Of a stretch of 36,794 nucleotides of DNA, positions 3,062-32,080 are shown piece by piece; position 1 is the first letter of the stretch; each line of letters begins with the position of its first letter. The DNA comes from a virus: UHGV virus genome UHGV-0205693; one strand, written 5' to 3'. A model generated the notes under the pieces. It was given only the letters and a program-made list of their open reading frames with translations, ran no database searches and was not told the DNA's origin. A program made the position numbers and the translations under genes.

Positions 3062-4078
3062 TCATTTTTTCTGACCGCCGACCACCGGCACGATTTTAGT
3101 TTTCCTGTCGTAAATTGCCGTCTGTCTCGAATTTTTATGACCTGAAATCGCCTGTTTCTCCTCGAGGCTTCCTTCCAAATCAGAAACACCTTTCGCCTTC
3201 AGATCATGGAAAGTGAAATCTATCTGCAGGTGCGGGTTCTTTTCCTGCGCTGCGATTTTGGCGTCGCGCCAGCGTGAATTAAAACCGTCGCGGGTGTATT
3301 TGCTGCCGCTGGTCTGGTGAATGACAAACAGGCTACGGATACCCGGCTTTAACGGCAGGGAGCGGGCGAGGGCGACAGCGGCGCGCAGGCGTGGCGACCA
3401 TGCTTTGATTTGCTTCACGCCTGTTTTCCCCTGGCGTATAAAGATCCCGGTTTCCCGTATCTGGTCTTCAGTCAAAGCCAGCACATCGCTTTGTCTGGCC
3501 AGACACAAATAAGCGATTTCCATGGTGGCGCGAACCACGTCCGGAGCAACGTCGTAAACCGCTTTGTATTCTTCGTCGGTGATGTAACGCTCCCTGGCCG
3601 TCTCTTTGAACTTCTTAACGCCCTGACAGGGATTATGCTGAACGTAACCGCGCTCATAACCCCAACGGAATACCCGCGAAAGAAAACTCTTTTCCCGGTT
3701 AGCCTGCGTTTTACTGGCCATGCCACGCTGATCCATATAGCGCCGGATGTGTTCTGGTTTAATTTTATCCGGGTTAACCTTCCCGAATACCGGCAACACT
3801 TTGCCTGCGTATTTCGTGTAGTCTTTTCGGGTTTCTGCCGCTAAATCCTGCCAGTCAGGGGAAGACATGAATTGATCGGCCAGAGCCTGAAACGTCTTGC
3901 GCTCGACTTCTTCTCCCATGGCTTTTTCATATGCCAGCCATACAGCTGATTGAGGCTCGGAGAGCGCACATAGCCTGATAGCCTTGTTATCTTTATTCCT
4001 GAATTCATACGCCGCCTTGCCGCGATACACGCGGGGCGGCATCCAGTTATCAGCGGGGTTCTTACGCTTTCCGGCCAT
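3062..4078 (-). CDS. int: tyrosine site-specific integrase
   Basis: 338 aa with a lambda-integrase-like organisation, a C-terminal catalytic region (HDLK...H...R...Y context), and adjacency to the tRNA-derived att core. Confidence 0.85.
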   Translation of the reverse strand: MAGKRKNPADNWMPPRVYRGKAAYEFRNKDNKAIRLCALSEPQSAVWLAYEKAMGEEVERKTFQALADQFMSSPDWQDLAAETRKDYTKYAGKVLPVFGKVNPDKIKPEHIRRYMDQRGMASKTQANREKSFLSRVFRWGYERGYVQHNPCQGVKKFKETARERYITDEEYKAVYDVAPDVVRATMEIAYLCLARQSDVLALTEDQIRETGIFIRQGKTGVKQIKAWSPRLRAAVALARSLPLKPGIRSLFVIHQTSGSKYTRDGFNSRWRDAKIAAQEKNPHLQIDFTFHDLKAKGVSDLEGSLEEKQAISGHKNSRQTAIYDRKTKIVPVVGGQKK

Positions 4079-20950: not shown

Positions 20951-21835
20951 ATGGACGAATTAGCTGATGCGGTAAAGAAAACTTTAATTCAAAGAATAAA
21001 CACTCCTCTTTTCGGGTTCATAGTCCTCTCATGGCTGGGGTTTAACTGGGATAGTTTATTGATAGTTTTAATGGGTAGTGGAGAACTACAAGATAGAATC
21101 ATTAAAGTGAAAAGTGAACCATGTATTTTTTGGTATTCTGTAGTTGCTCCTATCCTTTTGGGTTTTATTATTGCCGTTCTTTTTCCTTATGCTAGTCATG
21201 CTGTGAGTTTTTTTCAAAGATGCGCGCAAAAAATCGCTGATGGTAACGATATCAAAAGGGCAAAATCTGAGAGTGAGGCTCGTGAAATCATTGCTGAATA
21301 CACAGCTAAAGCAGATAGCGCACTAGCTTATCAAACATCTCTGTTTGCAAAAAGGAATGCAGAAGAAGAACTCAAGGTTACTAAAGTTACACATGATATC
21401 GAGAGCATTAAGAAGTCATATGAAGAAGCTGAAGAACAATTTAATATTTTAAGTTCGAAGCTTGAGTTGGCGGAAGGGAAACTTAATGAAATTGAAGGTG
21501 AAATAAATTCTAAGTCGGATGCTCTTAAAGATTTAGTAGATGAGCTAGGCCCTTATGAGAAAATAAAAAATAAAATTGAGGAGGATAAAAATAGATTAAT
21601 GGACACTATGGCAACTATTGATAGGTCAGTTAGTTCCATTTTCAGAGAAATATCAAAATTTGGCTATCGAGTACATTTTGACGATGACCAAACTCCTGAT
21701 TATGACCCGACTAAAGCGACTAAAATTACCGATGAAGAAGCACGCTCAGCGTTTCGAGTTATAGGTCACGCGGCAAGAGTTATTGATGAATTCATGCCTG
21801 GCACAGGTTATAGGATAAAAGAACCCAGAGGGTAA
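20951..21835 (+). CDS. AT-rich moron: membrane protein with two N-terminal TM helices plus a long coiled coil (294 aa)
   Basis: TM segments LFGFIVLSWLGFNW and IFWYSVVAPILLGFIIAVLFPY. Heptad-rich region EELKVTKVTHDIESIKKSYEEAEEQFNILSSKLELAEGKLNEIEGEINSKSD. GC content far below the neighbours. Confidence 0.6.
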   Translation: MDELADAVKKTLIQRINTPLFGFIVLSWLGFNWDSLLIVLMGSGELQDRIIKVKSEPCIFWYSVVAPILLGFIIAVLFPYASHAVSFFQRCAQKIADGNDIKRAKSESEAREIIAEYTAKADSALAYQTSLFAKRNAEEELKVTKVTHDIESIKKSYEEAEEQFNILSSKLELAEGKLNEIEGEINSKSDALKDLVDELGPYEKIKNKIEEDKNRLMDTMATIDRSVSSIFREISKFGYRVHFDDDQTPDYDPTKATKITDEEARSAFRVIGHAARVIDEFMPGTGYRIKEPRG

Positions 21836-22936: not shown

Positions 22937-22995
22937 AGCCGCTGGTGCCTTTGCCGGGGGATATCTCCCGGCCTTTTTTCATCTGAGGTAAGGCT

Positions 22996-23559
22996 ATGGC
23001 TGACAGTATTTCTATCTGCTCTAACGCACTGCTGGCGCTCGGTGCTCACCCGATTAACAGTTTCGACGAAAACACCGATCACGCCCGCCTGTGCTCAAAC
23101 CTTTATCCCACCGTACGCAATAAGCTACTGCGCGCGCATCCGTGGAACTGCGTTGTAAAACGTGTGGTTCTCTCTCCTGTCAGTACGGCACCGGTATTCG
23201 GTTTCCGCTTTCAGTTCGCACTACCCGGTGATCTTCTTCGCGTTCTGTCCGTTGGGGAACCTTACGACGATATCCCGTACCGCGTCGAAGGAAACCGGCT
23301 GCTGGCGAACGTGCAGGTACTGAAGCTGCGTTATGTGTTCCGCAACGAAGACGAATCCACCTGGGATGCCGCGCTCGTTGATGTGGCAGAAATGATGATG
23401 CAGGCAAAGCTGGCCTATGCCGTCACCGGCTCTACCAGTCTGCGCGACAGTCTCGCCCAGGAATCGCTGGTACTGCTGAAGCAGGCGAAGGCGGTGGATG
23501 GTCAGGAAGACCCACCGGAAGAGCTTGGCGGCTATCCAACCTACGAATCGAGGTTCTGA
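22996..23559 (+). CDS. tail tubular protein A (T7 gp11-like)
   Basis: N-terminus ICSNALLALGAHPINSFDE parallels the T7 gp11 segment AVNDILASIGEPPVSTLEG. Similar size. Followed by the gp12-like gene. Confidence 0.65.
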   Translation: MADSISICSNALLALGAHPINSFDENTDHARLCSNLYPTVRNKLLRAHPWNCVVKRVVLSPVSTAPVFGFRFQFALPGDLLRVLSVGEPYDDIPYRVEGNRLLANVQVLKLRYVFRNEDESTWDAALVDVAEMMMQAKLAYAVTGSTSLRDSLAQESLVLLKQAKAVDGQEDPPEELGGYPTYESRF

Positions 23560-23560
23560 C

Positions 23561-25549
23561 ATGCGCGCCAATCTGATTAAAACCAATTTCACCGCTGGCG
23601 AAATTTCCCCGCGTCTTATGGGGCGCGTTGATATCGATCGCTATGCGAACGGCGCGAAGACGCTGGAAAATAGCGTGGTCGTAGTGCAGGGCGGGGTAAT
23701 GCGTCGTCCCGGTTCGCAGTATGTAGCGGCCACAAAGTACGGTGATAAAAAATCCCGCCTCATTCCGTACGTTTTTAACCGCACGCAGGCGTACATTCTG
23801 GAATTTGGCGACGGCTATCTGCGAATTTACCAGGACGGTAAGCAGCTGGTGAACGACGATAACACGCCGTATGAAATCGCCAGCCCGTACACCTCTGACA
23901 TGCTGCCATCGGTAAATTACGTTCAGGGCGCCGATACCATGTTTCTGGTGCATCAGGCCGTTAAACCGTATCGCCTGCAGCGACGCGGGCAAACCGATTG
24001 GGTTCTGGAACCGGCGCCGTTTATCGTTGAACCCTTCGACGAAGTACGCGACACACCGCAAAAGTGGTGCAAGCCATCAGTGAAAGAATTCGTCGGCTCG
24101 GAAATCACGCTGACACTGAGCGATGATGAACCGCCAGAAAGCGGAGACGGAACGCTCACCGGTGATGGCTGGGTGCCTGAAGATGTGGGCTCGTACGTAA
24201 GGATTAACAGCGGTCTGGTGCTGATCAAGAGCGTAACCAGTGCACAGGTTGCTGTCGGTACCATTCGCACCGATTTAAGCGCAACGCAGGCAGCATCGCC
24301 GGGCGCCTGGACTCGCGAGGATTCTGTCTGGACGGATGAATTTGGATACCCGGGTGCGGTAACGCTTTACCAGCAGCGGTTGGTTCTGGCTGGTTCGCCG
24401 CAGTATCCGCAAACTATCTGGTGGAGCGAATCGGGCGTATACCTCTCTTTCGAGCTGGGAACCGATGACGACGACGCGATCAGCTTTACGCTCTCTTCTG
24501 ACCAGCTTAACCCGATTGTTCACCTCGCGCAGATGAATACGCTAATTGCGCTGACGTACGGCGGCGAGTTCACCATCACCGCCGGCAATGATGCGGCGAT
24601 TACGCCTACCAATATTTCGGTAAAAAATCCCAGCCCGTACGGATGCAACGGGATCCGCCCTGTGCGCGTCGGTACCGAAATTATGTTCGTCCAGCGTTCT
24701 GGCCGTAAGCTCTACGCTGTCGCCTATGACCCCGACAGCTATGTAGCTTACTCGGCCAACGATATGACTGTACTGGCGGAACACATCACAGAAGGCGGTG
24801 TGATCGATATGGCGTATCAGCAGCAACCTGATGCGTTTACCTGGCTGGTTCGCAATGATGGCGTAATGGTGACAATGGCTATCGACCGGGTGCAGAACGT
24901 TGTCGCGTGGTCACGACAGATCACCAGTGGTGCGTTTGAGTCCGTAGCGACTATTCCCTCAGCGACTGACGATGTGGTGTACGCCATTGTGCGCCGTACG
25001 GTCAACGGCCAGACCGTTCGCTATGTCGAAATGTTCAGTAACGCCCTGTACACCGATGCAGCCGTGACGGGCTCCAGTGATACTGGCGCAACGACATGGG
25101 GCGGACTGTCGCACCTCGAAGGCGAGACCGTCGATATTGTCGCTGATGGCTCAGTGATGCCGCAGGCGGTCGTTTCATCCGGCCAAATCACGCTATCGCG
25201 CAAAGCCTACAAAGTCGAAATCGGCCTGCACTTTGAAACAACCATTACCACGCTGACACCTGAAGTCGCCACGTCTGAAGGCACCACGCAGAACACCCGT
25301 AAGCGCACAAGTGAAGTCACTATGCGTTTCCTCGAAACCACTGGCGCAGAGTGCAACGGCCAGGTGATCCCGTTCCGCACGTTCGGGCCAAAAATCCTCA
25401 ACCAGCCGGCGCCGTTGTTCACCGGCGATCACTACTGGGGAAAACTTGGCTGGGAGCGCGGAGAAGACACGCTGACTATTCAGCAGCGCCAGCCGCTGCC
25501 ATTTCATCTTCTCGCCATTGTCATCGTATTTACCAGCAACGGGGGCTAA
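23561..25549 (+). CDS. tail tubular protein B (T7 gp12-like)
   Basis: 663 aa starting MRANLIKTNFTAGEISPRL, positioned after the gp11-like gene. Confidence 0.6.
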   Translation: MRANLIKTNFTAGEISPRLMGRVDIDRYANGAKTLENSVVVVQGGVMRRPGSQYVAATKYGDKKSRLIPYVFNRTQAYILEFGDGYLRIYQDGKQLVNDDNTPYEIASPYTSDMLPSVNYVQGADTMFLVHQAVKPYRLQRRGQTDWVLEPAPFIVEPFDEVRDTPQKWCKPSVKEFVGSEITLTLSDDEPPESGDGTLTGDGWVPEDVGSYVRINSGLVLIKSVTSAQVAVGTIRTDLSATQAASPGAWTREDSVWTDEFGYPGAVTLYQQRLVLAGSPQYPQTIWWSESGVYLSFELGTDDDDAISFTLSSDQLNPIVHLAQMNTLIALTYGGEFTITAGNDAAITPTNISVKNPSPYGCNGIRPVRVGTEIMFVQRSGRKLYAVAYDPDSYVAYSANDMTVLAEHITEGGVIDMAYQQQPDAFTWLVRNDGVMVTMAIDRVQNVVAWSRQITSGAFESVATIPSATDDVVYAIVRRTVNGQTVRYVEMFSNALYTDAAVTGSSDTGATTWGGLSHLEGETVDIVADGSVMPQAVVSSGQITLSRKAYKVEIGLHFETTITTLTPEVATSEGTTQNTRKRTSEVTMRFLETTGAECNGQVIPFRTFGPKILNQPAPLFTGDHYWGKLGWERGEDTLTIQQRQPLPFHLLAIVIVFTSNGG

Positions 25550-26001
25550 TGATGATTCGTAACGCCACAGCCGGGGATATCCCGGCGCTTATCGAGTTGG
25601 GGACCCGGATGTATCTCGAGTCCCGTTACTCGCTAAATTCGCCGTTTGACGCGGATAAATGTGCAGAACTGGCGCAGAGCCTGATTTATTCGCCGTCTGG
25701 TTGTGTGCTGGTCGCTGAAAAAGACGGGCATGTGATCGGCTGGCTTGGCGGCGGTATCGCAGAGCAATTTTTCTCCCGCCAGTTGATGGCTTTTGAATAC
25801 GGCTTATTTGTCGCGCCAGAACATCGAGGCGGCAGCGCCGGGCCGCGACTGGCACGCGCGTTTATCGACTGGTCAAAAGAGCACGGCGCCGCCGTTATCA
25901 ACATGGGGATCACCACTGGCGTGCACGCAGAACGCACAGGCCAGTTGTATTCGCGTCTCGGCCTGCAGCAAACAGGCCTGCTTTATTCGATGGAGGTTTA
26001 A
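25549..26001 (+). CDS. GNAT-family N-acetyltransferase (150 aa) in the slot of T7 gp13
   Basis: Acetyl-CoA-binding motif region VIGWLGGGIAEQF...LFVAPEHRGGSAGPRLARAF (motif A, R-x-x-G-x-A/G). ATG overlaps the gp12 stop. Confidence 0.7.
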   Translation: MMIRNATAGDIPALIELGTRMYLESRYSLNSPFDADKCAELAQSLIYSPSGCVLVAEKDGHVIGWLGGGIAEQFFSRQLMAFEYGLFVAPEHRGGSAGPRLARAFIDWSKEHGAAVINMGITTGVHAERTGQLYSRLGLQQTGLLYSMEV

Positions 26002-26003
26002 CG

Positions 26004-26471
26004 ATGTGCACTGGCGTAGAAATTGCCCTGGTGGCGTCCACGGTGTTAGCCGCCGGCGGCGCAGCGTACAGCGGGCAGCAGCAGAAAAAAATGGCGAACT
26101 ATCAGGCTGCGCAGGCTGAAGCTGACGCCGAAGCGTCAAAAGCAGCCGCAAAAGTTGAAGCCGACCGTATCCGTAAAGCCGGGCGTGAACAGGCCGCAGC
26201 GGCTAACGCTTCGCTGGCGGCATCGGGTGTTGAAACAGGTGAAGGTACCGCACTGCGCATCACTTCGGGCATTACCGAAGACGCCGAGCAGGACGCTTAC
26301 CAGACGATCCTTAATGGCGTGAATTCCTCTAACCGTCTGCAATCGCAGGCGCAGGCTGACCGAATCAGCGGAAATAACGCAGCAACGGCCGGTTATATCA
26401 ACGCTGGTAGCTCTTTATTGTCGGGTGGCGCCAAAGCGTATAACGGCTGGAAAACAAGGCAGGGGGCTTAA
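26004..26471 (+). CDS. internal virion protein B (T7 gp14-like)
   Basis: 155 aa, Ala/Gln-rich, N-terminal hydrophobic segment. Position matches. Confidence 0.5.
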   Translation: MCTGVEIALVASTVLAAGGAAYSGQQQKKMANYQAAQAEADAEASKAAAKVEADRIRKAGREQAAAANASLAASGVETGEGTALRITSGITEDAEQDAYQTILNGVNSSNRLQSQAQADRISGNNAATAGYINAGSSLLSGGAKAYNGWKTRQGA

Positions 26472-29186
26472 GTGAGAATACCAACTGGAAATTTCGGCAA
26501 TGTAACGCCGCAGGCGCAGCAAAACCGGGTGGCAGTCAGCAACGTTGGCGCCGTAGGCAATGCCATTTCAGGCGCAGGCGTGGCATTAGGCGAAGCTGCT
26601 GATCTGGAACAGCGCCGACAGGATAAAGCTGAGGTAGCGGCGACGCAGGCTATCCTGACCGATCTGGAAGCTAAATCTAATGACCGCTGGGAAAACCCGG
26701 AGACGGGCGCCACGGTCACGCGTCAGGGCTTTAAATCGTCCGGTGTGGTCACCGATATGGATAAGGCCGACGCTGGCGATTACGAGGAAGCGCGCAAGCG
26801 CGTCCCGCCCAGCCAGTTAAACTATTTTGATGCACAGTGGAAAGCGGGACAGGTACGTCGAACAAGCACCTATAGCGGTTTCGAACGTGCGCAGACTGAG
26901 GAAGCCCAGCGCCAGCAGCTTAACGCGACAGTGACCTCTTCAGTTGAACAAGAGGCCAGCGCCTACGATAACCCGATGCAGGCGGGGCTGATACGCAGCG
27001 CCCGTAAACACTCGATCGAGATGTATGGCCAGGCGCGCGGCTGGCCGCAGGAACGTATCGACGCGGCGGTATCGGAAGCGAACCAAAAAGCGCTGGAGCA
27101 GCGCGCGCAGAACTACGCGGTAACCAATCCCACCGGCTGGCTTAATGGTGATTTTACGCTGGTCAACAGCAGCACCGGCGAACTTGATATGCGCGCCGTT
27201 GGCCTGGTGGAATCCGGCGGCAAGCACCGCAATGCAGATGGTAGCCTTGTTACATCCCCCGCGGGCGCGCAGGGTGAATTTCAGTTGATGCCGGACACCG
27301 GGAAAGAACTGGCGTCTAAACGTGGCGTGGAGTACAACCCGGACGACCCTGTGCAGCATGCGCAGCTGGCGCGCGATTATGCCGGGCAGCTCAGTAAAAA
27401 ATATCAGTCTGAAACGTTGGCCGGCGCTGCATATAATTGGGGTATGGGTAACGTCGATAAGCTGATCGCTAAAGTTGGCGACCCGCGTAAAGGCGAAATC
27501 TCAATGGCGGATTTCGTTAAGCAGCTGCCAGCCGAAACGCGTGGTTGGCTGTCCCGCTACAACAAAAATAAAACTGGCCTCGACCCGGTAGCGGTAAACA
27601 AAATCGACAATATCGCCGAATCGCAGATCCGAGAACAGCGAGCGGCGCTGCGCCAGCAGATGGAGCCCATCGTTAATAATACATTTTCTCAGCTGTACAA
27701 TGGTGATGTTCCCGAAGCGATGCCTAATGCCGAAACCATCATGTTCATGTACGGCGAGAAAGGGCAGCAGGTAGTAAAGCAGCTGGATATCGCGATCGAT
27801 ACCGCCAGAACCTTCCAGGCTATCCAGTACGTCACCCCGGCAGAGCAGCAGGCCGAACTGGCGAAAGTGAAGCCGCAGGCAAACGACCCGGATTACGCAC
27901 TGAAACTCGATGCGTACGGCAAACTTAATGCGCTGGTGCAGAAGAGCAACGCCAATATTCAGGCGCAGCGTGATTCCGCCCGCTTTAACGACGCGCTGAT
28001 CTCCGGCGAGAAACTCGACCCGAGCAACAAATCCATGCAGAAGGCGGCGGACAATACGCCATCGGCGCTTAACTTCCGCATTAACGACGCCACCACTCAC
28101 GACGCTATCGTGCAGCAGGTTAACCAGACGGGCATTATCCCATCGCAAGTTACATCCCAACTGAATGCGATCGCCCGCTCCAGTAGCCCCGACGTGGTTA
28201 AGCAGGGATCGACCTTATTTAACGCGCTATACGAAACTGATCCTGCCTCTGTGGGCGATATGCCAAAGGATATGCAAAGCTTTTACCTGACCGTTAAACA
28301 GCTTACCGATTCCGGTATGGCTTCAGACGAAGCGGTGAAGCAGGCACAGAACGTGACCTATAACCAGACTGACGCCCTGAAATCGCAATTGTCTTCTACG
28401 CAGAGCACGAAGGAATACAAAAAAGAGCGTGCCAGCGCGATGGATTCCGCAGTCAGTAGCATGAAACCGTGGTACAGCTTTGGTGGCCCCGCTGCAGATG
28501 ACCAGAATCCTAATTCAGTAAAATTCCGTAATGACTACCAGTCACTTTATGACATCAATTATCGCAATTCGGGTGGTAATGCTGATATCGCCAAAAAGAT
28601 GACTAATGCCCAGATCACCCGTACCTGGAGCCTTAGCGATGTAAATGGCAGCACTCAGCTTATGAAATATGCGCCTGAAGCGCTCTATAACTACGGGCCA
28701 TCTGGTTGGCAGGCTGCGCAGTGGAAAGAAGAAAAAGAGCGCCTGACCTATGGCGAACGTGGAGAAAAAATTGAAACCAGTCCGACCCAACTGGGGATTA
28801 CATCAGGTTCAGCGCCCGTTATTACATCAAATACCCCAGAATCGAGGATTGGTGGAGAGCTGGAAATAACCCCGGATATTTTTACTCCGCATGATCGTGA
28901 TTACGCGATTATGGTTCGCATAAAAGACAAAGATGGTATCCCCAGAGCACAGCCTTATTACGATAAATTTGGTCGTCCCATGCGCTGGAAACCTGACATT
29001 GAAAAATGGGGACCATATCAAAAAATGCAGCAGGAGAGGGAGCAACAAGGTGAAGAGGAAATATCACGCGGGAAAGATATTCGAGGCTTTAAGGAAAAAC
29101 ACCGCGCGCTCGATGAGCAATATCAGCGTTTGCATGATGACCGTATGAACCGGTTTAAAAAATACTTTTCATGGAGCAATGAATAA
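26472..29186 (+). CDS. internal virion (ejection) protein with a lytic transglycosylase (SLT) domain, gp15/gp16-like
   Basis: VESGGKHRNADGSLVTSPAGAQGEFQLMPDTGKEL is the SLT motif (ES..., GA.G.MQLMP.T). 904 aa. GTG start. Confidence 0.7.
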   Translation: MRIPTGNFGNVTPQAQQNRVAVSNVGAVGNAISGAGVALGEAADLEQRRQDKAEVAATQAILTDLEAKSNDRWENPETGATVTRQGFKSSGVVTDMDKADAGDYEEARKRVPPSQLNYFDAQWKAGQVRRTSTYSGFERAQTEEAQRQQLNATVTSSVEQEASAYDNPMQAGLIRSARKHSIEMYGQARGWPQERIDAAVSEANQKALEQRAQNYAVTNPTGWLNGDFTLVNSSTGELDMRAVGLVESGGKHRNADGSLVTSPAGAQGEFQLMPDTGKELASKRGVEYNPDDPVQHAQLARDYAGQLSKKYQSETLAGAAYNWGMGNVDKLIAKVGDPRKGEISMADFVKQLPAETRGWLSRYNKNKTGLDPVAVNKIDNIAESQIREQRAALRQQMEPIVNNTFSQLYNGDVPEAMPNAETIMFMYGEKGQQVVKQLDIAIDTARTFQAIQYVTPAEQQAELAKVKPQANDPDYALKLDAYGKLNALVQKSNANIQAQRDSARFNDALISGEKLDPSNKSMQKAADNTPSALNFRINDATTHDAIVQQVNQTGIIPSQVTSQLNAIARSSSPDVVKQGSTLFNALYETDPASVGDMPKDMQSFYLTVKQLTDSGMASDEAVKQAQNVTYNQTDALKSQLSSTQSTKEYKKERASAMDSAVSSMKPWYSFGGPAADDQNPNSVKFRNDYQSLYDINYRNSGGNADIAKKMTNAQITRTWSLSDVNGSTQLMKYAPEALYNYGPSGWQAAQWKEEKERLTYGERGEKIETSPTQLGITSGSAPVITSNTPESRIGGELEITPDIFTPHDRDYAIMVRIKDKDGIPRAQPYYDKFGRPMRWKPDIEKWGPYQKMQQEREQQGEEEISRGKDIRGFKEKHRALDEQYQRLHDDRMNRFKKYFSWSNE

Positions 29187-32080
29187 TGCCTATCTACCCG
29201 CAATCCGATGTTCCGCCGAGTGTAATGGACAATGCTCTTCAGGCGCCAACTGGTTTTGATGTATCTCTGCCTGAAGGAACTAACCCGGAGCCACAGCAGC
29301 AACAACCGTCTGTATGGGATGCCGCTTTTCGTCAGAATAACCTGCTCGCCGGGATGTTCCGCCCGGCTAAACAATTTGAGCCGGCGGAGGGGTATAACCC
29401 TTATTCTGATAAAAACGAACTAAAGGGGTACGAACAATGGGGATCCGCCTTTGCGGATTCACAATCCCCAGAGGAAACAGCCTGGATTAAAAACCGGATA
29501 GACGATGAAAACGAAGACCGCCGGGTGCTGTCTGAAGCAGGTGCCGAAGGAACTTTAGCCAGTATAGCCGCCGGGGTTATCGACCCCGTCACAGTCGCAT
29601 CGATGTTTATCCCCGGTGCGCAGGGAAGCCTGGCTGCTCGTATTGGTTCTCAGGTTGCTATTGGCGCCGCCGGTACCGCGCTTAGCGAGGTTGCGCTCAA
29701 TAACGAGCAGTATACCAGAACAGCAAGGGAGAGCGCCGCACACATCACAGCCGGCGCACTTCTCAGCGGTGTATTTGCTACCGCTGGCGCGATGATCACC
29801 CCGTCGGTAAGAAACGCGGCCACCCGTGAAGTGGCGGAGGCGCTCGATAATATGAACGCCTCGCCAACGATTAACAACGCAGCCGATGCCCTGGAGGATA
29901 CTTTACCGAACGGTGGCAGCGTCGGTGCTATGCGTATTCGCGAAGCTACACTGGAAGATCTTACGCCAGTGTCTGGCGGCCCGCTCGGAAAGCTGGCTAA
30001 AAAAGCCGGTAGCTATCTGACGCCGATCACCCGCCTGATGGAATCCCCATCAAAAGAAGCGCGCCGGACAGCGCTGGAGCTGGCAGAGAATAACTTCACG
30101 CTGGAAGGCAACCTGCGCGGTATTGAAACGCCGGTTGCAGCTGAGACGCGCGTACGTGGCTGGCGCCGCGAAGAGGCGGCCGTCGTTACTGCGAATAAGC
30201 AGGCATACACCCAGTACAAAGCCGAAGGCGGTGATCTGGGTTATACGGCCTTCCGTGAACAGGTTGGCGAGGCGCTGCGCAACGGCGACGTGCACGTCAA
30301 TGCGAAAGTGCAGGAAGCGGCGCAGGCAATGCGTACAGTCATTAACCGCGTGAAGACAGCACAGCAGGAACTGGGCTTACTTCCGCCGGATGCCGAACTG
30401 AAAGCGATGGGACAGACCAGCTATTTCCCACGCGTGTACAAGGTAGGGAAAATCGTTAGCGAGCGCGATAAATTCCGCAACATGCTGGTTGACTGGTGGT
30501 CACGCGGTGAGAAAACCATGTCCCGCGAAGATGCCGAAATCGCCGCCGATACCACTATCAACCGTATCGTTGGGGCCAAAATTCCGCAGGAGTTTGCCAA
30601 CGTCTTTATGGTGAAAGCGCCGGGCAGCACTAAATCGCGTACGTTGAGCGTTCCCGATCGCCTGATGAAAGATTATCTGGAGAGCGACGCTAACTACGTC
30701 CTGCAGCGTCATATCCGCGAAGCCTCGGCAGAAATCGAATTAACCCGCACCTTTGGCAACAAGTCGCTGGATTCGCAGCTCGCCGCCATCCAGGACGAGT
30801 ACGACGCGCTAATGCGTTTACGCCCGGCGGAACAGGAAAAGCTGGCGAAAGCACGTGAAGCCGACCTGCGCGATATTCTGGCGCTTCGCGATCGCCTCGT
30901 CGGTACCTACGGTATGCCGGATGACCCATCATCATTTTTCGTCCGCGCCGGTGCTTTCCTGCGTAGCGCCAACTTTGTAACGAAACTCGGCGGCATGACG
31001 GTATCCGCTATCCCGGATCTGGCGCGCGGCATGATGGTTAACGGCTTCAGCAACACCATGCGTGGATATGGCGCACTGATCACCCGCTCGCCGGCTTACC
31101 TCGCCAACCGGGCGGAGCAGAAGAAAATGGCCGTGGGGCTTGAAACCATACTGCATACCCGCGCGCGTACGATGGGGGATCTGGTCGATAGCTCTTCACG
31201 TACGACAGCTGCAGAAGCTGGCATGGAGCGTATTACCGATGTGTTCGGAAAGCTGACCATGATGGGCCACTTTGACGATATGAACAAATCGGTGAATGGC
31301 ATGATCACGTCCGACGGTATTCTGTCCGGCGCGTTCCCTGCGAAGCGCCTGGCAAAACTCGGCATCAATGAGAAGATGGCCGAACGCATCCAGCGAGAAT
31401 TTCAGAAGCACGGCGAAGTTATTCAGGGCTGGCATATCGGCAATTTCGAAAAATGGGATGACCAGTACGCCGCTGGCCTGCTGCAATCTGCTGTGCTGAA
31501 GGATGTAAACAATACCGTTATCACGCCGGGGATTGGTGATACGCCGCTATGGGCCAGTACCCCGTTGGGGAAAACCGTATTCCAGTTTAAGTCTTTTGCC
31601 ACGGCGTCATATAACCGCGCGACGCTCGGCGGCCTGCAGGAAGGTACCGCGCAGTTCTATTACGGTACCGCCTTCCAGATTGGTCTGGGCTCTTTGACCT
31701 ATGCGCTTAAGCAGGCGGCTAACGGTCGGGAAGTTGATTTGACGCCGCAGAAGATGGTTCTCGAGGGCATAGACCGTTCTGGTATCCTCGGCCCGCTGAT
31801 GGAATATAACAACATGGCGGAAAAGGCATCCGGAGGGATGATAGGGTTAGGGCCATTACTCGGCACCGGTACGCAGTCCCGGTACGCCAGCCGCGGCTTT
31901 ATCGGTTCGGCACTGGGGCCAACCTTCGGCCTACTGGATACGGTTACCGATGTGACCGCCGGCGTGCTGAATGGTGACGCTGGCGACCGTGTGCTGCATA
32001 GCGTGCGTACGTTGTTACCAGGTAATAATCTGTTCTGGATCGCACCACTAATTAACCAGGTAGACCCAGGGATGCGTTAA
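29186..32080 (+). CDS. large internal virion / ejection protein (gp16-like), 964 aa
   Basis: Size and position after the SLT-containing protein. ATGA-type coupling. Confidence 0.55.
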   Translation: MPIYPQSDVPPSVMDNALQAPTGFDVSLPEGTNPEPQQQQPSVWDAAFRQNNLLAGMFRPAKQFEPAEGYNPYSDKNELKGYEQWGSAFADSQSPEETAWIKNRIDDENEDRRVLSEAGAEGTLASIAAGVIDPVTVASMFIPGAQGSLAARIGSQVAIGAAGTALSEVALNNEQYTRTARESAAHITAGALLSGVFATAGAMITPSVRNAATREVAEALDNMNASPTINNAADALEDTLPNGGSVGAMRIREATLEDLTPVSGGPLGKLAKKAGSYLTPITRLMESPSKEARRTALELAENNFTLEGNLRGIETPVAAETRVRGWRREEAAVVTANKQAYTQYKAEGGDLGYTAFREQVGEALRNGDVHVNAKVQEAAQAMRTVINRVKTAQQELGLLPPDAELKAMGQTSYFPRVYKVGKIVSERDKFRNMLVDWWSRGEKTMSREDAEIAADTTINRIVGAKIPQEFANVFMVKAPGSTKSRTLSVPDRLMKDYLESDANYVLQRHIREASAEIELTRTFGNKSLDSQLAAIQDEYDALMRLRPAEQEKLAKAREADLRDILALRDRLVGTYGMPDDPSSFFVRAGAFLRSANFVTKLGGMTVSAIPDLARGMMVNGFSNTMRGYGALITRSPAYLANRAEQKKMAVGLETILHTRARTMGDLVDSSSRTTAAEAGMERITDVFGKLTMMGHFDDMNKSVNGMITSDGILSGAFPAKRLAKLGINEKMAERIQREFQKHGEVIQGWHIGNFEKWDDQYAAGLLQSAVLKDVNNTVITPGIGDTPLWASTPLGKTVFQFKSFATASYNRATLGGLQEGTAQFYYGTAFQIGLGSLTYALKQAANGREVDLTPQKMVLEGIDRSGILGPLMEYNNMAEKASGGMIGLGPLLGTGTQSRYASRGFIGSALGPTFGLLDTVTDVTAGVLNGDAGDRVLHSVRTLLPGNNLFWIAPLINQVDPGMR

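Follow-up and report, generated by a model that had tools for sequence, protein, structure and literature searches.

A GNAT-fold protein at the head of the ejection-protein genes of a temperate Klebsiella podophage as a probable counterpart of T7 gp13

Why would a phage encode a small protein of the GNAT acetyltransferase fold in the middle of its virion genes, directly between tail tubular protein B and the first of its ejection proteins? The question is raised by a stretch of viral DNA of 36,794 nucleotides (UHGV virus genome UHGV-0205693), which was analysed as a whole and is called the window here. The host phage of the gene is a temperate podophage, a Klebsiella prophage, with an integrase, a repressor-like gene and host-type (O/DnaB-type) replication genes; no phage RNA polymerase was found among the scanned window ORFs. 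An initial annotation of this DNA treated the acetyltransferase as an unusual occupant of the slot that gene 13 has in T7, and guessed at an injected effector or a toxin. The features that matter for the argument are as follows:

22953-22972, terminator-like hairpin 3' of the capsid gene
22996-23559, plus strand, gp11-like tail tubular protein A / adaptor (phrog_394 'tail protein', E=1e-59)
23561-25549, plus strand, gp12-like tail tubular protein B (nozzle), 662 aa (phrog_376, E=2e-219)
25541-25545, plus strand, GGGGG run within the gp12-like 3' end, a putative ribosome-binding site as read from the sequence
25549-26001, plus strand, GNAT-fold ORF, 150 aa, the IVP-A / T7 gp13-position gene of the ejection-protein module
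25992-25996, plus strand, GGAGG inside the last GNAT codons, the Shine-Dalgarno of the gp14-like gene by the same kind of reading
26004-26471, plus strand, IVP-B (T7 gp14-like) small ejection protein, 155 aa (phrog_418 'internal virion protein', E=3e-39)
26472-29186, plus strand, large ejection protein in the IVP-C position, 904 aa (Pfam SLT, lytic transglycosylase, E=1.2e-9; phrog_1044, E=0)
29186-32080, plus strand, large ejection protein in the IVP-D position, 964 aa (phrog_342 'internal virion protein', E=7e-194)

The gp11-like gene is the first one after the hairpin, and no promoter-like site was found inside the block that runs from it to the ejection genes. The gp12-like gene probably starts at 23561, not at 23498, with gene callers giving the 662-aa product; identity of this product is 76% to the protein of Yersinia phage YeP4-6 and falls to 38-39% for the 'tail tubular B' of HTVC010P-type pelagiphages. 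Its stop codon (TAA, 25547-25549) shares a nucleotide with the ATG of the GNAT gene (25549-25551) in a TAATG overlap. Another in-frame ATG at 25552 gives a product of 149 aa with an 'MIR...' start, which most 149-aa homologues prefer, and the GGGGG run is spaced 3 nt from the ATG at 25549 and 6 nt from the one at 25552. At the other end the stop codon occupies 25999-26001, and the gp14-like start at 26004 is 2 nt beyond it. The dN/dS of the GNAT gene is 0.065, equal to that of the structural and virion neighbour genes and a mark of strong constraint, so the ORF is functional and did not arise by chance.

The protein matches Pfam PF00583 (Acetyltransf_1) with 46.9 bits (cutoff 20.7, E=3.8e-12) and phrog_1249 'acetyltransferase' over its full length (residues 1-149, E=4.3e-48), and the profile of its family matches 59 solved GNATs in the PDB, the best of them being 4j3g (E=2e-12). 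The AF2 model (pLDDT 95.6) has the element order b1-a1-a2-b2-b3-b4-a3-b5-a4-b6-b7, which is the GNAT topology, and the best 50 Foldseek matches in the PDB are all GNATs, with TM up to 0.86 and about 20% identity to any solved structure. In the model, the acetyl-CoA loop R93-G94-G95-S96-A97-G98 is placed between beta4 and alpha3. The family comprises 487 clusters at E<=1e-30, and the exact window protein is present in 224 blocks of the assembly collection. Apparent fusion proteins of the family were considered as a source of a partner domain and rejected, being tandem GNAT-GNAT duplications, mis-called N-terminal extensions or frameshift artefacts.

Residue conservation was read from 144 representatives with 31-49% identity. 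Within the loop, R93 is kept in 100%, G94 in 85% and G/A98 (position +5) in 90%, but the canonical Gly at +3 of the Q/R-x-x-G-x-G/A pattern is not kept and S, T, M or L stands there instead; the loop is a variant of the pyrophosphate-binding one and probably functional. Beyond it, D10 (100%), D/E83 (99%), E24 (94%) and Y134 (75%) are conserved, and the window protein retains both E83, acidic and in beta4, and Y134, the motif-B Tyr. In degenerate proteins of the same slot, R93, G94 and Y134 are all lost. Both the acetyl-CoA loop and the catalytic-type Tyr, lost in T7 gp13, are retained by the window family, which is therefore probably catalytically competent, an active acetyl-transferring enzyme.

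The present analysis thus establishes a real gene of GNAT fold, in the gp13 position and coupled within the operon, and in these respects the initial annotation was right: the protein is a GNAT with an acetyl-CoA-type loop (Pfam, PHROG, model and R93-G98), it lies between a gp12-like and a gp14-like gene (phrog_376 and phrog_418), and it is coupled to the former by the TAATG at 25547-25551. That annotation also proposed comparing the gene content of the slot across relatives. The comparison returned the same order, gp11-gp12-GNAT-gp14-gp15-gp16 with gaps of 0-5 nt, in YeP5 and in all 80 of 80 IMG/VR relatives; the single-protein locus scan yielded close relatives only, at 80-99% identity. The order tail tubular B, GNAT, small IVP-B is also found in SIO1, P12053L, CRP-810 and HTVC024P, and BcepC6B has the same slot arrangement, its gp13 scoring 26.5 bits to Acetyltransf_1. 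Megablast of positions 23000-27000 against phage genomes gave no match. The slot gene is absent from BPP-1, and for phiRIO-1 an unrelated protein has been reported in the slot (PMC4819975), hence the function of the slot is replaceable.

The gene also travels with its downstream neighbours. Its identity co-varies with that of the gp14-like (rho 0.84) and gp15-like (rho 0.78) proteins, but with gp11 and gp12 identity rho is only 0.23 and 0.26, respectively, and a recombination boundary coincides with the gp12|GNAT junction. The GNAT gene is genetically linked to the ejection module and not to the tail-tube genes.

The kind of gene is already known. GNATs of this slot, SIO1 gp26.2 and related proteins, have been equated with T7 gp13 and IVP-A, and gp13 has been described as a non-virion factor for the assembly of ejection proteins (Hardies 2016, PMC4819975; Bischoff 2019, PMC6775973). 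In tblastn, the window protein finds SIO1 gp26.2 (E=1e-11), P12053L gp44 (E=3e-9) and the GNATs of Lentibacter phages ICBM1/2, which are called 'pc40'; in size, Pfam GNAT match and slot position they are all like the window GNAT. Differences exist as well: the slot GNATs of the SIO1-like phages/cobaviruses and of phiRIO-1-related phages have only about 30% identity to it, and these phages are virulent and infect marine alphaproteobacteria, unlike the window, a temperate prophage of Klebsiella.

T7 gp13 itself (PF11090, 'probable scaffold protein Gp13') sits in the same slot, gp12 to gp13 to gp14, and has 138 aa compared with 150. The model of its family (pLDDT 93.4) has GNAT topology, and its best 50 PDB matches are all GNATs, with RimI on top (E=2.8e-5). 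Hhalign of the window family against the gp13 family gives an in-register alignment with P=2-3e-4 and a probability of 38-44%; deepening the profile with the 144 representatives brought no improvement (P still near 3e-4), and shallow alignments gave nothing significant against T7 gp13 or P22 gp14. By sequence alone, homology to T7 gp13 is therefore weak and suggestive. No Pfam cross-match connects the two proteins, PF11090 not being matched by the window protein, and T7 gp13 was not among the 50 matches listed in a Foldseek search of BFVD. In T7 gp13 no acetyl-CoA loop is conserved, and the Tyr of the window family is replaced by an invariant Phe; by these residues T7 gp13 looks like a pseudoenzyme, and the window protein looks like a catalytically competent one.

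P22 gp14 has been termed a standard IVP-A homologue (PMC4819975). It has 151 aa (DUF2824, 'head morphogenesis') and is encoded directly 5' of the IVP-B homologue gp7, followed by gp20 and gp16. Locally its 'LPEIRGFS' aligns with 'APEHRGGS' of the window protein, yet there is no significant sequence link between P22 gp14 and the window family (E=0.13-0.19), and when PDB sequences were searched with HMMER, both P22 gp14 and the gp13 profile returned chance matches only. GNAT proteins may have been recruited to the same slot independently, which is conceivable because the GNAT fold is very common. Even so, the picture of an unusual occupant has to be given up: the GNAT-fold model of T7 gp13, the two publications (PMC4819975, PMC6775973) and the homology to SIO1 and P12053L show that GNAT-fold proteins are the normal occupants of the slot, and the window GNAT is an ordinary T7 gene 13 counterpart rather than an intruder.

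What would such a protein do? PMC4819975 cites T7 gp13 as needed for infectious particles and as absent from the mature virion; beyond PMC4819975 and PMC6775973, literature searches turned up no usable virion proteomics on the GNAT and no direct work on T7 gp13 or P22 gp14. We consider it likely that the window gene encodes a GNAT of the IVP-A family that helps the ejection proteins at the time of assembly and that is itself most likely a non-virion protein. In such a mechanism, the small GNAT-fold IVP-A (the family of T7 gp13, P22 gp14 and SIO1 gp26.2) would be co-translated with the ejection proteins and would work in the infected cell while particles assemble, so that the gp14-, gp15- and gp16-like proteins are correctly built into the procapsid, and it would most likely be left out of the finished virion. 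It would probably still move an acetyl group, most likely onto the ejection proteins expressed with it or onto a different protein of the virion. The assembly role and the absence from the virion we infer by analogy, carried over from T7 via PMC4819975; the catalytic activity and the identity of the substrate we infer too. The gp14-like protein begins Met-Cys; this N-terminus was considered as a target of N-acetylation and dropped, as it is absent from SP6, LUZ19, P22 and SIO1.

Related GNATs occur at another place in the genome, and they have to be weighed before the assembly role is accepted. SP6 gp28 (Autographiviridae) aligns with the window protein from end to end at 35% identity (E=3e-27) and belongs to the same phrog_1249 (SP6 E=9e-52, window E=4e-48), but its gene lies two genes 5' of the portal and not after tail tubular B. 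In the four SP6-type phages checked (SP6, HJG, BUCT553 and PM93) the gp13 slot is empty in every case, and it is also empty in LUZ19, where Rac lies two genes 5' of the portal; in the window, the ORFs 5' of the portal gene encode regulators and a phrog_17476 protein. Experimental data (PMC7552054) come from one relative alone, the distant Rac (LUZ19 gp28, RNA polymerase alpha cleavage protein). This small phage GNAT is encoded where the virion operon begins, and the phages in which it acts bring an RNA polymerase of their own, whereas none was found among the window ORFs scanned. One reading worth considering is a late enzyme directed at the host in the manner of Rac, made in the infected cell and reprogramming it by acetylating host proteins (proteases or the transcription machinery, for example), with its location in the virion operon serving late timing only. 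In its favour, Rac is a GNAT heading the structural operon of phiKMV-like phages, SP6 gp28 in the Rac position resembles the window protein as described, and the strict conservation of catalytic-type residues would fit a host-directed enzyme too. We still regard it as unlikely. BLASTP of Rac against the window protein found no similarity; the best PHROG of Rac is 3986, compared with 1249 for the window protein, and Rac reaches 1249 only weakly (E=5e-4); alpha is left uncleaved by the homologue of Rac in LKA1; and the identity of the GNAT follows that of the ejection genes. A shut-off of the host RNA polymerase as by Rac was rejected because of the different PHROG and because no phage RNA polymerase was found among the ORFs scanned; for a phage of the temperate type that lacks such a polymerase, loss of host transcription would work against the phage itself.

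The proposal of the initial annotation that the GNAT is packaged with the ejection proteins and injected, so that it acetylates a defence or takeover target in the next host, draws on the location of the gene among those of ejected proteins, and a small, soluble protein would find the cytoplasmic acetyl-CoA that it requires after delivery. However, the homologues or analogues of this GNAT in SP6-like, Colwellvirinae and phiKMV-like phages lie outside the ejection block, 5' of the portal, and the LUZ19 record marks the adjacent gp29 as a particle protein and gp28 only as a GNAT acetyltransferase; the injected effector is an unsupported reading, and we hold it to be quite improbable. Very improbable in our view is an aminoacyl-tRNA-acetylating toxin with an antitoxin partner, or a moron conferring resistance to aminoglycosides or other small molecules, even though a 150-aa protein of GNAT fold resembles both classes and AAC(3)-I enzymes are among the best Foldseek PDB matches. 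The flanking genes are conserved virion genes with a spacing of 0-5 nt in 80 of 80 relatives, and even in very distant phages the gene is a constant component of its module, which morons such as the variable ORF at 20951-21835 are not. The initial annotation had seen no antitoxin partner, and correctly so: the adjacent genes are virion genes, namely those of the 662-aa nozzle protein and of the phrog_418 protein, and no RHH/DUF1778-type antitoxin lies next to the GNAT. No toxin model, whether for type II TA GNAT toxins of the TacT, AtaT or KacT type or for any other, was matched in the NCBIfam scan of the protein, where every match lay far below its cutoff. That annotation's guess of a toxin finds no support, given these virion-gene neighbours in 80 of 80 relatives and the lack of any toxin or antitoxin family match. 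An aminoglycoside-resistance enzyme is rejected as well, the AAC scores being far below the NCBIfam cutoffs (AAC(3)-I 19.9 against 200 bits and AAC(6') group E 18.1 against 140; for rimI, 18.7 against 86.4).

The assembly role as T7 gp13 suggests it can be extended into a bolder hypothesis, which we think rather doubtful, that the ancestral podophage IVP-A was a working acetyltransferase acting on the phage's own ejection or virion proteins, from which pseudoenzymes and relocated copies arose later. Acetylation would then be a required step for loading the procapsid, and T7 gp13, BcepC6B gp13 and the slot proteins of pelagiphages would be descendants reduced to pseudoenzymes with only a binding or chaperone role left. 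In SP6-like, Colwellvirinae and phiKMV-like phages that gene would have moved to its place two genes upstream of the portal, which is proposed because the gp13 slot is empty in those phages. If this were true, Rac would be one of the relocated GNATs, and its reported effect on the host RNA polymerase would be a secondary or derived activity.

For annotation, the consequence is that this gene and its many prophage copies, labelled only 'GNAT family N-acetyltransferase', are best assigned to the module of virion assembly and ejection and not to morons, resistance genes or toxins. Catalytic-type residues are kept in this family across deep divergence and apparently lost in its best-studied relative, T7 gp13. 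This raises a testable question, namely the reason for having an acetyltransferase in the ejection modules of short-tailed phages, and it could conveniently be addressed in a culturable family member from Klebsiella, Yersinia or Salmonella (SP6).

The GNAT of the window (150 aa) is a further member of a kind already described, namely the GNAT-fold genes of the IVP-A (T7 gp13) type in podophage ejection modules, and its novelty is low. The ORF, which the initial annotation had called a GNAT acetyltransferase, is a real, constrained gene: it scored 46.9 bits against Acetyltransf_1 of Pfam (cutoff 20.7), matched PHROG 1249 "acetyltransferase" over its full length (E = 4e-48), and had a dN/dS of 0.065 against 74 close relatives, indistinguishable from the values of the flanking virion genes (0.058–0.071). 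The family profile matched 59 solved GNATs, and the AlphaFold2 model, based on 38 homologues, reached a mean pLDDT of 95.6 with the canonical GNAT order of strands and helices. The top Foldseek hits to the PDB were all GNATs, but at only about 20% identity and from many substrate classes (AAC(3)-I, RimI-like, phosphinothricin and polyamine acetyltransferases), and no NCBIfam equivalog came near its own cutoff; therefore, fold and sequence establish the superfamily, while the substrate class is not fixed. A resistance enzyme was rejected, with scores far below the NCBIfam cutoffs. The gene and the features discussed with it are as follows:

3062–4078, minus strand, integrase
20951–21835, plus strand, 294-aa ORF
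22953–22972, plus strand, strong GC-rich terminator- or attenuator-like hairpin followed by a T-run, between the major capsid and gp11-like genes
25541–25545, plus strand, G-run, candidate ribosome-binding site of the GNAT
25549–26001, plus strand, GNAT ORF, 150 aa
25992–25996, plus strand, GGAGG of the next gene (start 26004), within the GNAT coding sequence
26472–29186, plus strand, 904-aa protein with an SLT (lytic transglycosylase) domain

The TAA of the upstream ORF (25547–25549) overlaps the GNAT ATG (25549) by its last base; a second ATG at 25552 is the start of most homologues (149 aa, "MIR..."), and the stop codon is 25999–26001. Because of this overlap, and since no promoter-like sites were found in the gp11-to-gp16 block, the annotated "translational coupling" to the gp12-like stop is right as a statement about the sequence. 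Hairpins of the terminator or attenuator type are common downstream of podophage capsid genes.

In gene content, the window corresponds to essentially an entire temperate podophage: besides an integrase, Gam, an exonuclease and a repressor-like protein, it encodes two methyltransferases, O-like and DnaB-like replication proteins, head proteins (portal, scaffold-like, major capsid PF19821), a large terminase and a tail spike. Its tail and ejection genes are gp11-like (tail tubular A), gp12-like (tail tubular B), the GNAT, gp14-like, and those for the SLT protein (904 aa) and an internal virion protein of 964 aa. The window ORFs scanned yielded no phage RNA polymerase. Proteins 98% identical to the GNAT are carried by Klebsiella pneumoniae genomes, the family is found throughout Enterobacterales chromosomes, and the assembly collection records the exact protein in 224 blocks, with contigs reaching 2.9 Mb. 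Among cultured phages, Yersinia phages YeP4-6 come closest and share the gene order (GNAT 64%, gp12-like 76% identity).

Several neighbouring features were also observed. The SLT domain lies in the second ejection protein, at the IVP-C position, whose GTG start abuts the gp14-like stop, whereas in T7 it is in the last, gp16-position protein. The gp14-like protein starts with Met-Cys (26004–26012, MCTGVEIAL...), as do T7 gp14 (MCWAAAI..., locus L084 from 3729) and CRP-810 gp39 (MCGG..., locus L092 from 5461); in the comparison of N-termini this start was absent from the IVP-B (small ejection protein) homologues of SP6, LUZ19, P22 and SIO1. Between the scaffold-like and capsid genes lies the 294-aa ORF (phrog_4780), whose product has hydrophobic segments at its N-terminus and a long coiled coil; the ORF is missing there in 79 of 80 close relatives, the exception (L079) having a match of 24% identity; the scaffold-capsid interval varies in length among relatives, and this region looks like a variable moron slot.

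The placement in the gp13 slot, between tail tubular B and IVP-B, was borne out by gene content. The order gp11-gp12-GNAT-gp14-gp15-gp16, with gaps of 0–5 nt, was present in all 80 fetched IMG/VR relatives (GNAT identity 80–99%), and distant podophages share the order tail tubular B, small GNAT-like protein, small IVP-B, large proteins: Roseobacter phages SIO1 (gp27, gp26.2, gp26.1, gp26) and CRP-810, Celeribacter phage P12053L, pelagiphage HTVC024P with the whole HTVC010P-type group, Burkholderia phage BcepC6B (gp13, above the Pfam GNAT threshold) and, as a weaker case, Ralstonia phage RpY1. Nothing occupies the slot in Bordetella phage BPP-1 (L094, 4531–4543), where Bbp13 is a gp12-like homologue (30% identity); BcepC6B, a relative of BPP-1, has the GNAT-like gp13 there. 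Evidently, the slot gene can be lost or sit elsewhere. Across the 80 relatives, GNAT identity correlated with that of gp14-like (Spearman rho 0.84) and gp15-like (0.78) but hardly with gp11 (0.23) or gp12 (0.26), the loci having been chosen by GNAT similarity. Many relatives (L021, L023–L040) carry a swapped gp11-gp12 cassette of 74–85% identity whose end coincides with the gp12|GNAT junction, with the GNAT at 94–98% and the GNAT plus downstream genes at 90–99%. This junction (~25549) marks a recombination boundary between tail-tube and ejection modules, and the GNAT, with the same caveat on locus choice, therefore moves together with the ejection module.

Published work already makes the assignment to gp13: Hardies et al. 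2016 (PMC4819975) place standard IVP-A homologues of Epsilon15 and P22 at the same position, and Bischoff et al. 2019 (PMC6775973) write of the cobavirus GNAT that it "could correspond to gp13 from T7". As tblastn with the window protein directly matched SIO1 gp26.2 (E = 1e-11), P12053L gp44 and Lentibacter phage GNATs, it belongs to the set that published papers discuss. A model of the T7 gp13 family (24 sequences, the first 97% identical to T7 gp13; pLDDT 93.4) had GNAT topology, and its best 50 PDB matches were all GNATs (best RimI 2cnm, E = 2.8e-5); this predicted fold independently confirms the HHpred statement on gp13. The profile-profile link between the window and gp13 families was in register (P = 2.3e-4, 86 columns; P = 3.3e-4 with a 144-sequence window-family profile) and is suggestive only; shallower window-family comparisons with gp13 were unsuccessful, and P22 gp14 gave no significant profile link.

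The whole-library profile search returned 487 clusters at E ≤ 1e-30 and 4734 at E ≤ 1e-10. Among 144 representatives, just 31–49% identical to the window protein, the loop arginine R93 was invariant, E83 (beta4 acidic) was D or E in 99%, the N-terminal R4, D10 and E24 were conserved in 94–100%, G94 in 85% and G/A98 in 90%, and motif-B Y134 was Tyr in 75% and Phe in 13%. By contrast, the T7 gp13 family has a beta4-alpha3 loop without a conserved residue and an invariant Phe in place of the Tyr, and in BcepC6B, RpY1 and HTVC024P none of R93, G94 and Y134 survives in the slot protein. These residues make it probable that proteins of the window lineage are competent catalysts and that T7 gp13 is a pseudoenzyme. 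The conserved alpha1/alpha2 residues suggest that the acceptor is conserved, the co-expressed ejection proteins being the obvious candidates. Tandem GNAT-GNAT fusions (P0195, P0218, P0239; 318–371 aa) occur in the family, consistent with dimeric action.

The earlier interpretation was only partly supported, although the observation itself was confirmed. An injected effector would appear unsupported, as reports on T7 gp13 and the phiRIO-1 group lend it nothing, and the idea of a TA toxin fails: neither neighbour is of antitoxin type, toxin families gave no match, and the gene has a fixed place in a virion operon. A shut-off role like that of LUZ19 gp28 (Rac), the sole experimentally studied relative, is unlikely, since the window phage relies on the RNA polymerase of its host and Rac, which matches PHROG 1249 only weakly (E = 5e-4), shows no pairwise similarity to the window protein; the LKA1 homologue of Rac lacks its effect.

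SP6 gp28, also in PHROG 1249 and 35% identical to the window protein (E = 3e-27), is encoded two genes upstream of the portal gene, as are GNATs of Aeromonas phage HJG, Pseudomonas phage BUCT553 and Proteus phage PM93; Rac has the equivalent place. The gp13 slot is empty in all five of these Autographiviridae (SP6, L003, L085; LUZ19, L002, L086; HJG, L090, L098; BUCT553, L091, L099; PM93, L100), where tail tubular B is directly followed by the next protein (T7_gp14 family of Pfam in SP6 and LUZ19), and in T7 (L084) it holds gp13. This complementary pattern (n = 6) suggests one function in two alternative places, with SP6 gp28, and possibly Rac, as relocated IVP-A genes, an idea we did not find stated in the literature consulted on these phages. 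The biochemical question is sharpened by this slot-versus-portal placement and by the contrast of the window, SIO1 and SP6 types, which are catalytically intact, with the degenerate T7 gp13 type, and it is there that the residual interest lies.
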